Part shown: positions 5,808 through 14,953 of the stretch, piece after piece
Layout of the letters: each line of letters opens with the position of its first letter
How positions within the stretch are numbered: position 1 is the first letter of the stretch
Source of the DNA: Candidatus Latescibacterota bacterium
GTDB taxonomy: Bacteria; Latescibacterota; UBA2968; UBA8231
Direction of reading: 5' to 3'
Assembly: GCA_965197905.1 (NCBI GenBank)
Contig: CBDAOB010000005.1
Span: forward strand, 288,001 to 352,000
DNA length: 64,000 nucleotides
The notes under the pieces: model-generated
What the model saw: the letters and a program-made list of their open reading frames with translations, nothing else
What the model was told of the DNA's origin: nothing
The model's database searches: none
Made by a program: the position numbers and the translations under genes

Positions 5808-7052
5808 TCACCTGATCAAGGTGTATTTGCTCTTGCCGCGGCGGATGACCAGAAACTTGCCGTGCAAGCCGTCTGCCTTGCGCAACGCTCGATCCAGCTC
5901 GGTGCACCGCTCTCCATTCACGTAGATCGCGCCATTCTTGATGTCCTCCCGCGCTTGCCGTTTGGAGGACGACACCTTCGACGTTACCAGTAAATCCACC
6001 AGATTCAATTCTTCTTCCACCATCGAGTGCGACGGGACATCGTTGAAACCCTCCTCGATCTCTGCTTCTGCAAGCTCCTGAAGGTTCCCGTAGAACAGGG
6101 CCTGGGAGATCTTCTCGGCGGTCTTGGCTGCGTCTTTACCGTGCACCGTCTCGGTCACCTCGGCGGCCAAGCGGCGCTGCGCTTCCCGCTTTTCCGGTTG
6201 GGAACGAGTAACGTCCTCGATCTTGCCGATCTCCTTCCGGCCCAGGAAGGTGAACATACGCAGGTAGTTCAGGGCGCTGTTGTCATCGCTATTGACCCAG
6301 AACTGGTAGAATTGGTACGGGGAGGTTTTCCCGGCGTCCATCCACACCGCACCGCGCTCACTCTTACCGAACTTGCCGCCATCCGCTTTGGTCACCAGCG
6401 GGTTCGTAAGACCGAACGCCTTCTTGGAGGTAGCGCGGCGAATCAGATCGGAACCCGCTGTGATATTGCCCCACTGGTCCGACCCGCCGATCTGCAGCTC
6501 GCACTGGTGATCCTGCAGCAGGCGGAGGAAGTCGTAGGCCTGCAAGGTCATGTAACTGAACTCGGTGTAGGAGATTCCGGCGGCAAGGCGAGAGGCGACC
6601 GAATCCTTGGCCAGCATGTACGGAATCGGGAAGTGCTTGCCCACATCGCGAAAGAAATCGATCGCCTTTATCTCTCCCAGCCAGTCGTGATTGTTGACCA
6701 CCTTAGCCGGATTCGTCGCGACCTCGAAGTCCAGAATCGGCTCCACCTGCCGGCGAATCCTCTCCGTCCAGGCGGCGACCGTCTCGGCCGTGTTGAGACC
6801 GCGCTCTTCCGAGCGGCCGCTGGGATCGCCGATCAGTCCGGTGCCCCCGCCCACCAGCGCGATGGGGGAGTGGCCGGCCAGCTGGAAACGGCGCAAGACC
6901 AAAATCGGCAGCAGGTTGCCAATGGTGAGACTGTCGGCCGTAGGATCGAATCCGCTGTAGAGCGTGATCGGTCCCGACTTCAAGCGCTCCGGCAATCCAT
7001 CTGTGGACTGGTACAGCAACCCCCGCCATTGTAGATCTTCTAGAATGTCCAT
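5808..7052 (-). CDS. tyrS: Tyrosine--tRNA ligase
   Basis: YSGFDPTADSL, GGSDQWGNI, KFGKS, C-terminal S4 domain (RRGK). Confidence 0.97.
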   Translation of the reverse strand: MDILEDLQWRGLLYQSTDGLPERLKSGPITLYSGFDPTADSLTIGNLLPILVLRRFQLAGHSPIALVGGGTGLIGDPSGRSEERGLNTAETVAAWTERIRRQVEPILDFEVATNPAKVVNNHDWLGEIKAIDFFRDVGKHFPIPYMLAKDSVASRLAAGISYTEFSYMTLQAYDFLRLLQDHQCELQIGGSDQWGNITAGSDLIRRATSKKAFGLTNPLVTKADGGKFGKSERGAVWMDAGKTSPYQFYQFWVNSDDNSALNYLRMFTFLGRKEIGKIEDVTRSQPEKREAQRRLAAEVTETVHGKDAAKTAEKISQALFYGNLQELAEAEIEEGFNDVPSHSMVEEELNLVDLLVTSKVSSSKRQAREDIKNGAIYVNGERCTELDRALRKADGLHGKFLVIRRGKSKYTLIR

Positions 7053-7071
7053 AGTGCTCTCCGTTTAGAAC

Positions 7072-7099
7072 AAAAAAAACCCCCGAGAATCGGGGGTTT
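7072..7099 (-). terminator. Intrinsic terminator (attenuator) just upstream of tyrS
   Basis: Minus strand AAACCCCCGA-TTC-TCGGGGG followed by T8, ending 20 nt before the tyrS ATG. Confidence 0.85.
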
Positions 7100-7130
7100 G
7101 CACAGATCGTCGCGAAACACGTCGGTGATA

Positions 7131-7187
7131 TTATCCCCCGTACTGTTTTTCAAGACGATAATAATAGGATTTCAGCGTCATATTCAT
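7131..7187 (-). CDS. Tyr-rich leader peptide MNMTLKSYYYRLEKQYGG (putative tyrS attenuator peptide)
   Basis: ATG AAT ATG ACG CTG AAA TCC TAT TAT TAT CGT CTT GAA AAA CAG TAC GGG GGA TAA; lies between the promoter and the terminator. Confidence 0.8.
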   Translation of the reverse strand: MNMTLKSYYYRLEKQYGG

Positions 7188-7207
7188 TTGCCCGTGGATT
7201 CAATCGG

Positions 7208-7236
7208 AATATAGGGGGCCACGAGACGAACGGCAA
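7208..7236 (-). promoter_or_regulatory. sigma70-type promoter for leader-tyrS
   Basis: TTGCCG-N17-TATATT on the minus strand. Confidence 0.65.
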
Positions 7237-7260
7237 CCCTGTCCTGGCCGTTCGTCGCTC

Positions 7261-8052
7261 CTATACCATGTCGGTTTCCTCGTTGCCCTTGAACAGGGTG
7301 AAGGTACCACCCTGCGGATCGGACACGACCGCGAAGCGGCCCACAGGGATGTCGGTCGCCGGCACACAAACCTTGCCGCCAAGCTCGGTCACCTTCGCGG
7401 CCCCGCCGTCGACGTCGTCGCAGCCGATATAGACCATCCAGTGCGCCGGGACCTCCGCCGGAAAGTCATCGCCCATGGCGAAAATGCCACCGTTGCCGCG
7501 GTCGCCCACTTTGCCGATGTAATAGGTGCCCATCTCGCCCAGGTCCATCTCTTCGTAGGTCCAGCCCAACAGGTCGCCGTAGAAAGCGCAGGCTTTCTCC
7601 TGGTCGCGGGTTGCCAGCTCGTTCCAGGTCAGCGCGCCATGCTCGTTGAAGACAGTGGCTCCAGTGTGTTCCTTCGGTTGCCACAGGGAAACCACCGCCC
7701 CGGTGGGGTCCTGGATAATGCTCATGCGTCCCGCGTCCATCACGTCCATGACTGGCATTATCACCGTGCCGCCCAATTCGGAGGCGCGCGCGGTTGTAGC
7801 GTCGGCAACCTCGACCAGGATGTAGGAATTCCACACCGGCGGCATCCCGGATTGCTCGGGGTTCTGAGCGCCCATGCCGGCGACATCAACGTCGCCTTTG
7901 GAGAACATGGTATAGAAACCGTACTCGCCGGCGGGCTTGTCCTCGTGGGTCCAGCCAAAGAGGGAGCCGTAGAATGTCTTTGCGGACTCCACGTCCGGAG
8001 TCATGAGATCGCACCAGCAAAACATCGTGGGTTTCAGCTCGACAGCGGGCAT
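7261..8052 (-). CDS. VOC/glyoxalase family protein (two-domain, CFP32-like)
   Basis: FCWCDLMTPD...FYGSLFGW and WNELATRD...FYGDLLGW; DPTGA/DPQGG. Confidence 0.9.
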   Translation of the reverse strand: MPAVELKPTMFCWCDLMTPDVESAKTFYGSLFGWTHEDKPAGEYGFYTMFSKGDVDVAGMGAQNPEQSGMPPVWNSYILVEVADATTARASELGGTVIMPVMDVMDAGRMSIIQDPTGAVVSLWQPKEHTGATVFNEHGALTWNELATRDQEKACAFYGDLLGWTYEEMDLGEMGTYYIGKVGDRGNGGIFAMGDDFPAEVPAHWMVYIGCDDVDGGAAKVTELGGKVCVPATDIPVGRFAVVSDPQGGTFTLFKGNEETDMV

Positions 8053-8219: not shown

Positions 8220-8296
8220 GGGCGATTAGCTCAGCTGGTCAGAGCACCTGCCTTACAAGCAGGGGGTCGCTGGTTCGAGCCCGGCATCGCCCACCA
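8220..8296 (+). tRNA. tRNA-Val(TAC)
   Basis: GGGCGAT acceptor stem pairing with ATCGCCC-ACCA; anticodon arm CCTGC-CTTACAA-GCAGG; GGTTCGAG T-loop. Confidence 0.97.
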
Positions 8297-8299
8297 TCC

Positions 8300-8336
8300 A
8301 AAAAAGCCTTCGGAGCACTCCTCCGAGGGCTTTTCT
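8300..8336 (+). terminator. Hairpin terminator after the tRNA
   Basis: AAAAGCCTTCGGAG-cactc-CTCCGAGGGCTTTT. Confidence 0.75.
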
Positions 8337-8363
8337 ATAATGACTCGGTGTGACGGTTGCCTA

Positions 8364-8395
8364 TTGACTCCGTACCATAGTGCAGGGTCTATATT
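8364..8395 (+). promoter_or_regulatory. MerR-type operator/promoter with long spacer
   Basis: TTGACT-N20-TATATT; begins TTGACTCCGTAC like mer operators; imperfect dyad ACTCCGTAC/GTGCAGGGT. Confidence 0.75.
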
Positions 8396-8413
8396 CAGTT
8401 TGGAGGATGAAAA

Positions 8414-9514
8414 TTGAACCAGATCACGATAGGTCAACTGGCCAAAAAGGCCGGCGTAAAGGTTGAAACAGTGCGCCACTATGAACGCCGAAATCTGATA
8501 TCCGAGCCCCCACGGAGCGATTCTGGATACCGCCAGTACAGATCCAAGGATGTACAACGAATTCGGTTCATCAAACGAGCGCAACGACTGGGATTCACGT
8601 TGCGTGAAATCGAGGAACTCCTGCAGTTGAGAGTAGATCCAGACACAACGTGCGCTGATGTGAAGACCGAGGCCGAAGCAAAAATCGAAGACATTCGCCA
8701 AAGAATTCGCTCTCTGCAGAAAATGAAGCGCGTACTTACAGAATTGACAGTGTCGTGCGACAGTCGTGCGCCAACGAATAACTGCCCGATTCTGGAATCT
8801 CTGGCTAAAGTCGATTTCATATATGATGACGATTGTCCGAACGTGACCGCTGCCCGACAAAATCTCGAGCGCGCGTTTGAGCGGACGGGTCGGAAGCCAG
8901 TTTGGCGTGAATGGCGGCGTGCCGAGAGTTCCGAGGATTTCCAGCATTACGGATCCCCGACGATACTTGTCGACGGCGTCGATGTTGGCGCAAATGGTGC
9001 GGTCAAGGCAGGTGAGTCGTGCCGCCTTTACCACGACAACGCCGGCAATCTTTCTGGTGTGCCGTCCGTGGAGTCAATTGCATCGAAGTTGCAGAGCGAT
9101 GAGGGGCACAGCTTACAACCGAGAGATCGCTGGAGCCGGATGTGGGCGGTGGCCCCAGCAATCGCGACCTCACTGTTACCCAAACTAACCTGTCCGGCCT
9201 GCTGGCCTGCATATGCCGGGGTTCTGAGCACGCTGGGATTGGGGTTTGTGGACTATACGCCTTATCTGATGCCGCTGACGATTGCGTTTCTTTTGATCGC
9301 GCTAGGGTCCTTGGGCCGAAGCGCATACAGAGAGGGCGACTACAAGCCTCTTTTCCTCGGGATTTTAGGGGCTCTGTTCGTTTTGGTCGGGAAGTTTGAG
9401 CTTGATATGGAGGCGGCGATGTACGGCGGCATAGCTTTACTGATGGCCGCATTTGTCTGGACCTCCTGGCCAAAGCAAAACCATGACTGTGCGCAGCATG
9501 CGAGCCAAACATAG
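8414..9514 (+). CDS. MerR regulator fused to a thioredoxin-like domain and a MerC/MerT-type membrane domain
   Basis: MerR HTH (TIGQLAK...VETVRHYE...GYRQY) with three Cys (TTC, SC, CPIL); YDDDCPNV...GSPTILVDG...SCRLY; LPKLTCPACWPAY plus about 4 TM helices. Confidence 0.85.
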   Translation: MNQITIGQLAKKAGVKVETVRHYERRNLISEPPRSDSGYRQYRSKDVQRIRFIKRAQRLGFTLREIEELLQLRVDPDTTCADVKTEAEAKIEDIRQRIRSLQKMKRVLTELTVSCDSRAPTNNCPILESLAKVDFIYDDDCPNVTAARQNLERAFERTGRKPVWREWRRAESSEDFQHYGSPTILVDGVDVGANGAVKAGESCRLYHDNAGNLSGVPSVESIASKLQSDEGHSLQPRDRWSRMWAVAPAIATSLLPKLTCPACWPAYAGVLSTLGLGFVDYTPYLMPLTIAFLLIALGSLGRSAYREGDYKPLFLGILGALFVLVGKFELDMEAAMYGGIALLMAAFVWTSWPKQNHDCAQHASQT

Positions 9515-9530
9515 GAGAGCATGAAAATGA

Positions 9531-9779
9531 GTGATAATCTTCACGGCCGGCTGTCCGGCCTGCGATGACACTGTGGAAATGGTTAATCAAATGGTTTGTC
9601 CCTGCTGCGATGTCAGCATTCTCGATATGCATGAGAAGGAAGTCGCCAGTCGTGCGCGGGCGCTGGGCATACGCTCGGTGCCCGCTGTTGCCGTTGACGG
9701 AAAATTGGCCGATTGCTGCAGCGGTCGTGGTCCGGATGAAAGTAGCCTGCGAGCAATGGGCGTTGGACAGCCTTTGTAA
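9531..9779 (+). CDS. Small thioredoxin-fold Cys-rich protein
   Basis: GCPAC, CPCC, SVPAVAVDGKLADCC; start codon uncertain. Confidence 0.8.
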   Translation: MIIFTAGCPACDDTVEMVNQMVCPCCDVSILDMHEKEVASRARALGIRSVPAVAVDGKLADCCSGRGPDESSLRAMGVGQPL

Positions 9780-9885
9780 CTGAGGTGCCTCGTTGCTGGC
9801 CCACAGGACAATTTCCTCAAGTTCACTTTTCCGTTGTCGATCTATGTAGTGGACCTTCCGGGTCCAAAATTCCACGGACGGATGT

Positions 9886-13132: not shown

Positions 13133-13300
13133 ATGGCAAAGCAGCCTGATGGAGTCGGATTGGCGCAGGAGATAGCGGATCAATACCGCGGAGTTACAGC
13201 GGGTGTGGTGAAGGTGCCGGTTACCGTGATTGAGCGATGGGAGGAGATGGCGAGGGAGCTGGAGGGGCTTCAGCAGGAGACTCCGGAAGAGGAGACCTAG
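13133..13300 (+). CDS. Small hypothetical protein (repeat family A, copy 2)
   Basis: GAGGAGAGAGGA RBS plus ATG; paralog of 10694..10903. Confidence 0.6.
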   Translation: MAKQPDGVGLAQEIADQYRGVTAGVVKVPVTVIERWEEMARELEGLQQETPEEET

Positions 13301-13379
13301 CAAAGAAAAATTGCTGGCGATTGCTCACACACATTCCGTTCTTCAGGCTCTACGTCTAAACAACCAAGGAGCAGCTCCG

Positions 13380-14953
13380 CTGGCACTCCAGAGTCGATTC
13401 CAGTTATCAGTCCCGATTACGTCGAAGAGAGTCTCGATCATAGCAACGGCCTTCTACCTTGTCGCTTGCGGGTCATCGATAGAAGACAGTATAGACAAAC
13501 TCGGCGCCGGACCCGACGAGCAAGCCGCAGCAAAACATGAGCTTGTCCTGGCCTCAGAAAGAGCCGTTGAGCCCCTTATTCAAGCGCTGGCATCGGATCG
13601 AGAGACGAAAATCCGTGCTGAAGTGGCGGACATTCTGGTGAGTCTTACGATGCGAACCGCCGACGAGCGGATCGCCGCCGTGCTCGAGAAACATTTACTG
13701 AACGATCCCGAGCCTGTGGTGCGTGGACGCATCGCCGAGGAGCTGGAACTGCGCATGCAATCCGAGTTTTTTGACCTCTTTCTCCGGGCCATTTCCGATC
13801 CCTCTCCAATGGTGCAGGCCCCAGCGCTGCTCTCTTTCGGCAATGCTATGGGCAAGCTGAGCGACGAGCAGACCCAAACGTTGCGGCGGCTCGCAGGTGA
13901 AAGGGCACTTTCAGAAGACCAGGAGGTTCGCGCGGCCGCGCTATACCTGGTCGAAGAGTACGTCGCTCAGTGGGCAAAGAAGGCGCGAGAGGCAGCTCTT
14001 AAAGCAAATCTTTCAGAAGCCGACTCCCTTCTTGGCGTGGCAGTGGCTTATGCACCGGCCAGCAAACAGGCCAGATATTACCAGGGAAAATTTTACTTCG
14101 ATTACATGGAACGCGAGCATGGAATTAAGATGTTGAGGACACATCGACTGTTAGTTGATGTACCCAAACTCGAATCGCCCCCAACCATCGACGGACTGTT
14201 GGGCGATGAAGCCTGGGAAGGGGCGGCAAGGATTGATTCGTTCTATGTCCATGGGAGTACCCGTACGACGAATCCACCCCAGGTTCAGACTCACGTCGTG
14301 ATGGGGTATTCCGATACTGCACTCTATTGGGGCGCGCACTGCTTCGACGCCCATCCAGAAAGCCTGGTAGTGCTACCATTTGAAGATGAGGCTCCTTTTA
14401 AGCTACAGGACGTAATGATGTTTCGTCTCGATCGTAACCTGGACACGAAAGTCGCTCAAATGTTCGTCAACACCTTGGGATTGCAAAGAGATAGGGGGTA
14501 TTCCGATACTGCACTCTATTGGGGCGCGCACTGCTTCGACGCCCATCCAGAAAGCCTGGTAGTGCTACCATTTGAAGATGAGGCTCCTTTTAAGCTACAG
14601 GACGTAATGATGTTTCGTCTCGATCGTAACCTGGACACGAAAGTCGCTCAAATGTTCGTCAACACCTTGGGATTGCAAAGAGATAGCTGGAACGACTTCG
14701 AGGACTGGGCATGGGCCTAAAAAATGGGATGCGGACGCGATGGGATGCGGACGCGAGGGCGGCAGCCTATGTCGGAGACGACTTCTGGTCCGTCGAATAC
14801 GAGCTTCGGTGGGATCCGATATACCATCCGCCGCCGGTTTCGGGCGAGATCTCCGGTATGAACTTTATCCGACTTTTCCGCGCGATAGAGTGGAGTCACC
14901 CGTTTGTCGGGTATGACAAAAAGAAGGCACGAGGTTTCCTCCTCTTTCAATAG
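13380..14953 (+). pseudogene. HEAT-repeat + CBM9-like lipoprotein, copy 1; disrupted by a 192-bp tandem duplication and a frameshift at ~14716-14740
   Basis: LVAC lipobox, HEAT repeats, PPTIDGLLGDEAW; C-terminus continues in ORF 14711..14953; start uncertain. Confidence 0.75.
14303..14686. repeat. Exact 192-bp tandem duplication
   Basis: 14303-14494 equals 14495-14686 (64 codons repeated). Confidence 0.92.

Follow-up and report, generated by a model that had tools for sequence, protein, structure and literature searches.

A conserved tyrosine-codon leader upstream of tyrS in a family of Candidatus Latescibacterota, read as a predicted transcription attenuator

Does the tyrosyl-tRNA synthetase gene of an uncultured Candidatus Latescibacterota bacterium carry its own sensor of tyrosine supply? 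On the minus strand of the window (the whole stretch of 64,000 nt analysed here), a short open reading frame with Tyr codons lies between a promoter-like sequence and a hairpin ahead of tyrS, an arrangement that the original prediction read as a leader-peptide attenuator. The sequences show the parts of this leader, the order in which they lie and their retention across the family. Together with folding of the nascent RNA, they make it likely, in our judgement, that the Tyr-rich upstream ORF (uORF), the G-run and the terminator form a classical ribosome-mediated transcription attenuator, which would raise tyrS transcription when charged tRNA-Tyr is scarce.

The tyrS leader of the source genome

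The locus comprises the following features.

7208..7236, minus strand: sigma70-type promoter candidate TTGCCG-N17-TATATT (-35 at 7236-7231, 17-nt spacer, -10 at 7213-7208)
7131..7187, minus strand: leader ORF (uORF) MNMTLKSYYYRLEKQYGG, 18 aa from ATG 7187, probably 16 aa from ATG 7181
7158..7166, minus strand: predicted sensor codons TAT TAT TAT (three Tyr), from the sequence, family Tyr enrichment and footprint folding
7140..7142, minus strand: fourth Tyr codon, TAC, overlapping the antiterminator strand; predicted non-sensor
7133-7131, minus strand: uORF stop codon
7135..7140, minus strand: region 2, CGGGGG, 5' strand of the predicted antiterminator, immediately 5' of the stop codon
7106..7159, minus strand: predicted anti-antiterminator hairpin of the ribosome-free leader (7159-7154 with 7111-7106; 7140-7138 with 7125-7123, clamping the G-run)
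7091..7099, minus strand: region 3, AAACCCCCG, partner of either region 2 or region 4; includes CCCCCG 7096-7091
7072..7099, minus strand: intrinsic terminator (stem 7099-7077, -15.6 kcal/mol; U8 at 7079-7072)
7059..7062, minus strand: Shine-Dalgarno-like GGAG of tyrS, not part of the terminator stem
5808..7052, minus strand: tyrS, tyrosyl-tRNA synthetase, 414 aa (TIGR00234, 411.6 bits), single copy

The promoter, the ORF with its three TAT codons and one TAC, and the GC hairpin followed by U8 were verified at their predicted coordinates, and the segments proposed to pair in alternative ways (UAUUAUC 7163-7157 with GAUAAUA 7135-7129; CGGGGG 7140-7135 with CCCCCG 7096-7091) are present exactly as described. 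The profile match confirmed the downstream gene as tyrS, and a genome search found only this one tyrS in the source genome (G000). An identical leader was recovered in contigs assembled from public runs of two studies, one of which (X2, possibly the source sample of the genome itself) covers 6850-7336 in three pieces and the other (X5) 7056-7164. No clear Shine-Dalgarno sequence was found upstream of the uORF start in this genome.

A glyoxalase-family gene (7261-8052) is the upstream neighbour of the leader on the same strand. Just 3' of this gene, a 10-bp hairpin (7225-7256, minus strand) overlaps the -35 box of the tyrS promoter; it was not above shuffles (z -0.88). Elsewhere in the window, a tRNA gene occupies 8220-8293 and the region 8220-9875 resembles an island that entered at the tRNA gene, carrying what we take to be a fusion of a MerR-like regulator with a thioredoxin-like and a MerC-like part, then small redox genes. 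The ORF at 13230-14720 (plus strand) closes with some 60 residues repeated almost exactly in tandem, which may reflect a duplication in the assembly.

Taken alone, the locus did not clearly exceed chance. The leader region held one promoter-like pattern against 0.6 expected from shuffles and two terminator-like patterns against 1.4, and the leader fold had a z of -1.43. In a genome-wide scan for terminators preceded by biased uORFs (420 terminators, of which 229 have a gene downstream), the tyrS leader ranked 13th of 57 uORFs with an excess of one amino acid. The element rises above chance because it is conserved across the family.

Conservation and codon content of the family leaders

A family-wide search located tyrS in 70 of 76 genomes, and upstream DNA was compared for 69 of these, representing 18 genera. 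The uORFs were called by a rule that took the terminator, the nearest promoter and the longest ATG ORF between them and made no use of Tyr; the rule was settled once the sequences were known (from first ATG to longest ATG ORF) and is thus not fully blind. A terminator was found in 64 of the 69 upstream regions, a promoter with a terminator in 62, a uORF in 61 and a Tyr-bearing uORF in 60, a count that rises to 62 with two starts picked by hand (G003 and G023). The promoters were mostly TTGAC(G)-N17/18-TATATT. Of the nine loci that the rule missed, the Tyr ORF of G003 has a GTG start and that of G023 follows an unmatched promoter; both were added by hand in later folds. The contig of G008 ends within the region, with the G-run and terminator still there, and G017 keeps the Tyr frame, G-run and terminator and has no ATG or GTG start. 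The locus of G017 (L010) also shows three tandem 9-nt repeats at the position expected for the uORF start. In G010 (L022), a Tyr uORF and promoter are followed by a hairpin with no U-tract; its output is possibly a different one, such as Rho-dependent or translational control. In G004 and G020 (genus g3), tyrS comes after a formate-tetrahydrofolate ligase gene, and the tyrS loci of G012 and G018 are broken or odd.

Tyr was the most enriched uORF residue, with 43.3 codons against 7.7 expected (5.6-fold; base shuffles, genus-weighted, 14 genera), followed by Gly (1.6-fold); Arg reached 1.5-fold overall and Phe was depleted (0.52-fold). The genus-weighted TAY triplets, of which both TAT and TAC occur, numbered 43.3, 2.4 and 3.5 in frames 0, +1 and +2, respectively. 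The leaders are 13 to 28 aa long and their Tyr runs reach six; six of the ten leaders in genus g18 contain a single Tyr, inside RRYRR. The 26 leaders of genus g13 have an invariant ATG and stop and lengths of 57, 60, 63 or 66 nt, all multiples of three, and their post-stop spacer differs in length by 1-2 nt. Within this genus, TAT and TAC interchange at two sites (16:8 and 15:9), and the non-Tyr positions vary freely (of the variant codons, 40 are non-synonymous and 18 synonymous). Across leaders, the only conserved residues are Tyr, the Arg-Tyr pair and the Gly encoded by the G-run. As read from the sequences, this pattern marks a translated frame under selection for Tyr codons.

These observations bear first on an alternative in which the hairpin merely terminates transcription of the upstream glyoxalase-family gene and the ORF arose by chance. 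That gene does lie on the same strand, and the element of the source genome by itself does not stand out from dozens of chance uORFs. However, the architecture recurs in 60 of 69 genomes even though the sequence beyond the promoter changes from genus to genus, and the excess of Tyr in frame, together with length changes in whole codons, also speaks against chance. This explanation is effectively refuted, and we assign it next to no probability.

The same data weigh on arrest by the nascent peptide. TnaC and ErmCL halt the ribosome through peptide sequence plus a ligand, and a tyrS leader of this type would act in that manner, not through empty Tyr codons. The recurrence of the Arg-Tyr pair, including in 7 of 17 trp leaders of the family, would fit, but the leaders differ in length (13 to 28 aa), conserve only the few residues named above and, in g13, tolerate free change outside the Tyr positions. 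We consider peptide arrest highly improbable and retain the codon-based attenuator.

The frame of the predicted 18-aa ORF was upheld, but its start probably lies elsewhere: the first ATG (7187) is AGG in the congener G002, and the second ATG (7181) is thus probably the true start. In three representatives of genera g18 and g6 (G019, G086 and G021; loci L020, L145 and L013), the uORF ATG lies 7 nt past the -10 hexamer, which suggests that translation of the Tyr leader may be leaderless there.

The Arg-Tyr pair raises a further alternative, namely that the leader reads slow decoding broadly, the rare CGA before Tyr acting as a pause or second sensor, and that Arg-tRNA, tRNA modification and elongation rate matter as much. 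Weighted by genus, 10.1 of 13 genera have the pair, and CGA encodes its Arg in 8.0 of 11.6 cases, compared with 14% genome-wide. TAT makes up 63% of the leader Tyr codons vs 33% genome-wide, the lone Tyr of the six g18 leaders is flanked by Arg on both sides, and pairing of the Arg-Tyr block with post-stop RNA does not account for the pair family-wide. In some genera, however, CGA-TAY may serve local pairing (an 8-bp helix in G003, reached by 0 of 200 shuffles), Arg is enriched far less than Tyr (1.5-fold vs 5.6-fold), the leader of the source genome has no Arg ahead of its Tyr run, and the gene downstream is tyrS. Sensing of slow decoding in general is, in our view, unlikely, and the attenuator responding to Tyr-tRNA charging is the reading that we carry forward.

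Predicted switching between antiterminator and terminator

In the proposed attenuator, the uORF would be translated as RNA polymerase transcribes the leader. With ample Tyr-tRNA, the ribosome would reach the stop codon (7133-7131) and cover the G-run (7140-7135); the hairpin 7099-7077 would then form and transcription would end in U8. With scarce Tyr-tRNA, the ribosome would stall on the TAT codons (7166-7158), open the long hairpin and expose the G-run, which could pair with the emerging CCCCCG (7096-7091) before the 3' arm of the terminator exists and let the polymerase read into tyrS. If no ribosome were present, the long hairpin would clamp the G-run and termination would be the default.

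The G-run is itself a conserved element. A run of at least four G near the uORF stop, complementary to the terminator C-run, was found in 51 of 59 leaders, and its retention (11.4 of 13 genera vs 3.6 expected from synonymous recoding, genus-weighted) exceeds what the peptide would need. Nascent RNA was folded for 62 genomes with the ribosome footprint masked. A ribosome placed at the first or second Tyr gave a mean probability of C-run sequestration of 0.91-0.94 (> 0.5 in 15/15 genera), and one at the stop gave 0.14 (> 0.5 in 1/15). Shuffling the spacer reduced sequestration from 0.91 to 0.58; the observed value was higher in 15 of 16 representatives, and in nine of the 16 at most 5% of shuffles were as high. 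One representative (G086) did not switch in the predicted way. Ribosome-free nascent RNA already favoured the antiterminator in 10 of 15 genera, so this state is mixed among genera.

In the source genome, the predicted antiterminator probability was 1.0 for a ribosome on each TAT and 0.0 for one on the TAC or the stop, and the result was the same with footprints of 10, 13 and 16 nt. Folding thus supports the proposal that a stall on the TAT codons would free the antiterminator. The three TATs stand as the predicted sensor, but a stall at the fourth Tyr codon, the TAC (7142-7140), would favour termination because the footprint there hides the G-run, and on this prediction the codon was rejected as a sensor. 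Within genus g1, only the source genome and G002 have Tyr at this position.

The helix between UAUUAUC and GAUAAUA (a 1:2 helix), put forward by the original prediction as the counterpart of the antiterminator, did not hold as the main anti-antiterminator. It reached 0.15-0.29 in short transcripts and at most 0.01 once position 7104 had been made; the longer hairpin (7159-7154 with 7111-7106, plus 7140-7138 with 7125-7123) dominated in the source genome (0.84-0.99). All 12 pairs of this long hairpin are kept in the three genus-g1 sequences (3/3), with one compensatory change, a result not above shuffles (164/500). Genus g13 has a 1:2 helix of its own, 94% paired and not above the shuffle control, and an ungapped family-wide 1:2 helix at the first Tyr was not distinguishable from shuffles (5.18 vs 4.95, p = 0.30).

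Alignment of the relatives recovered the expected Tyr runs and a covarying terminator stem, in which all 26 distinct anchored rows pair at the variable position (C-G 10, U-A 15, U-G 1), but no antiterminator covariation outside the G/C core (14 of 42 free positions, compared with 12.7 in permutations, p = 0.35; the full anchor was present in only 37 of 63 genomes and is ambiguous inside G-runs). No two-sided change was seen in the antiterminator of genus g13. In full-length RNA, the terminator probability stayed at 1.0 when a ribosome was stalled on the leader. With the terminator thus favoured at equilibrium, the predicted switch must be a kinetic, co-transcriptional trap.

A translated uORF that merely sets a fixed or weakly regulated read-through, with no Tyr response in vivo, would agree with the dominance of the terminator at equilibrium and with the missing antiterminator covariation; precedents are the aroR leader, reported to be insensitive to Tyr supply despite its Tyr codon (PMC11802643), and the ilvB leader, in which altered codons reportedly made no difference (PMC1262725). 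Such an explanation leaves unaccounted for both the in-frame enrichment of Tyr, Thr and Trp before matching genes and the Tyr runs of up to six, and we regard it as very unlikely. The Tyr codons, frame, promoter, terminator and G-run/C-run alternative are all conserved in the family, in line with the attenuator reading, and Tyr sensing is what we infer from them.

Related leaders, origin and known systems

Cognate leaders also precede thrS and trpE in this family (trpE, trpS and thrS were identified by searches). Most family genomes have a promoter, a Thr-rich uORF and a terminator before thrS; 15 uORFs were called in 19 loci (L162-L173 and L185-L191), with Thr the most enriched residue (66 vs 26.3, 2.5-fold) and up to six Thr in a run (L189). 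The thrS of the source genome lies on contig C5 (start 2060944, minus strand). Before trpE, 13 uORFs in 17 loci (L193-L208 and L212) were most enriched in Trp (35 vs 7.4, 4.75-fold). The Trp leader of the source genome (C4:1908807-1908881, plus strand; 24 aa with two Trp, three Tyr and one Phe) is followed by a terminator and a fused trpE(G) operon ending in trpS, presumably trpE(G)-trpG-trpD-trpC-trpS. Since the enriched residue matches the downstream gene three times (tyrS, thrS and trpE), this lineage evidently uses leader-peptide control. Among 16 synthetase-like genes of the source genome inspected by eye plus alaS (argS, gltX/glnS and lysS were not located), only tyrS and thrS had a cognate leader.

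The thrS genes of families f2 and f3 (L174-L184) have a different leader type, with a conserved promoter, a leader of about 110 nt and a U-tract terminator; no Thr-rich ORF with an ATG or GTG start was found in these leaders. On contig C4 of the source genome, a gene at 2102393 (plus strand) that we take to be pyrB-like is preceded by a promoter and a terminator 56 nt apart, with no uORF; a UTP-sensing attenuator is possible there.

The tyr and trp sensor blocks both often open with Arg-Tyr, and seven of the 17 trp leaders contain Arg-Tyr-Trp. A common origin of the two was considered and rejected: nhmmer profiles built from 29 tyr and 17 trp leaders missed each other (best E 1.3), and the switch sequences differ. 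Outside the family, no Tyr leader was found at 20 further loci of the phylum or at three loci of family f3, and none of the other non-family loci examined had a Tyr leader with a terminator in the tyrS arrangement. In sister families, tyrS directly follows trpF. The TyrS proteins of the family group as a single clade (SH-aLRT 100) that includes genus g3, whose members lack the leader; the nested position of g3 suggests that the leader was gained once and lost at least once. In this quick, midpoint-rooted tree, from which eight loci had been excluded beforehand, the clade is placed among Bacillota and Patescibacteria sequences; of 12 Bacillota tyrS loci scanned, the nearest TyrS relatives outside the phylum, eight have a T-box.

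A bolder scenario, which we offer tentatively and consider doubtful, is that the family invented a Tyr attenuator from scratch as tyrS left its position after trpF, in the form of a two-codon Arg(CGA)-Tyr device in which the slow CGA would pace the ribosome and one Tyr would suffice, in some genera on apparently leaderless mRNA. If true, this would be a minimal attenuator design that reads tRNA-Arg or tRNA modification besides Tyr charging, in a phylum from which attenuation has not been reported.

The mechanism itself is classical; what has no counterpart among the reports that we found is the combination of amino acid, gene and phylum. Neither a published Tyr leader for tyrS nor published attenuation work on Latescibacterota was found in the literature consulted, mostly open-access main texts; supplementary tables could list such a leader. 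Tyr is the aromatic amino acid for which we found no dedicated published leader-peptide attenuator. Because the mechanism is textbook, the surprise is moderate. The tyrS leader, as read from its sequence, would solve a feedback problem with a ribosome-read switch in an uncultured phylum. Its confinement to one family and its range of about 60 natural variants, with one to six Tyr codons and probable leaderless forms included, make it a usable case for studying the origin of attenuators and the minimal number of control codons.

The T-box was described on tyrS. No T-box (RF00230) was found in the window, none over 6950-7400 with E values allowed up to 10, and none in the source genome, which is 91% complete (the search control was positive in 5 of 14 genomes); the proposed exclusion of a T-box by Rfam thus succeeded, and T-box control of this tyrS was rejected. 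The T-box of Bacillota tyrS shares with the present leader the gene, the effective signal (uncharged tRNA-Tyr) and the choice between terminator and antiterminator. It differs in binding the tRNA directly, whereas the predicted sensor here is a translated uORF.

Among published attenuators, the C. glutamicum aroR-aroF leader is the only one that we found with Tyr among its control codons: it carries Phe-Tyr-Phe codons and responds to Phe, not Tyr, supply (Neshat et al. 2014, as summarised in the accessible part of PMC11802643). That leader belongs to a biosynthetic, Phe-responsive operon, whereas the tyrS leaders enrich Tyr alone and are depleted in Phe. Closer in gene class are the leader attenuators of Streptomyces trpS2 and leuS, described in the available text of PMC1262725, which places tyrosine under T-boxes and reports that codon changes had no effect in S. 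coelicolor ilvB; the leaders of S. lividans alaS, thrS, trpS and leuS (PMC8079986, in part); and, in Rhodobacterales, uORFC-8-2 before cysS and a Phe uORF before aroF (PMC8632094, in part). His leaders are reported from Firmicutes in the accessible portion of PMC9413887. Like the tyrS leaders, these synthetase leaders are lineage-restricted, cognate and placed before the synthetase gene, and some are leaderless, as may hold for the three tyrS-leader representatives with the 7-nt gap; unlike them, they do not include Tyr or tyrS in the accessible lists of PMC1262725, PMC8079986 and PMC8632094, and tyrS does not occur in the main texts of the latter two. The consulted portions of PMC12612679, PMC12310071 and PMC4833913 held unrelated mentions of tyrS or none.

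In Rfam searches, Phe_leader scored 22 bits on the leader, mainly over the terminator half (7070-7135), and His_leader 16 bits, against gathering thresholds of 55 and 49 bits; the tyrS leader is not a member of Phe_leader because its score falls below gathering. The leader peptide of E. coli pheST likewise controls an aminoacyl-tRNA synthetase (Springer et al. 1985, cited in the accessible part of PMC11802643). The pheST attenuator uses Phe, not Tyr, and belongs to a different phylum, but it has the same components, namely a uORF of cognate codons, an alternative pairing and an intrinsic terminator before a synthetase gene, and the same feedback logic as that proposed here for tyrS.
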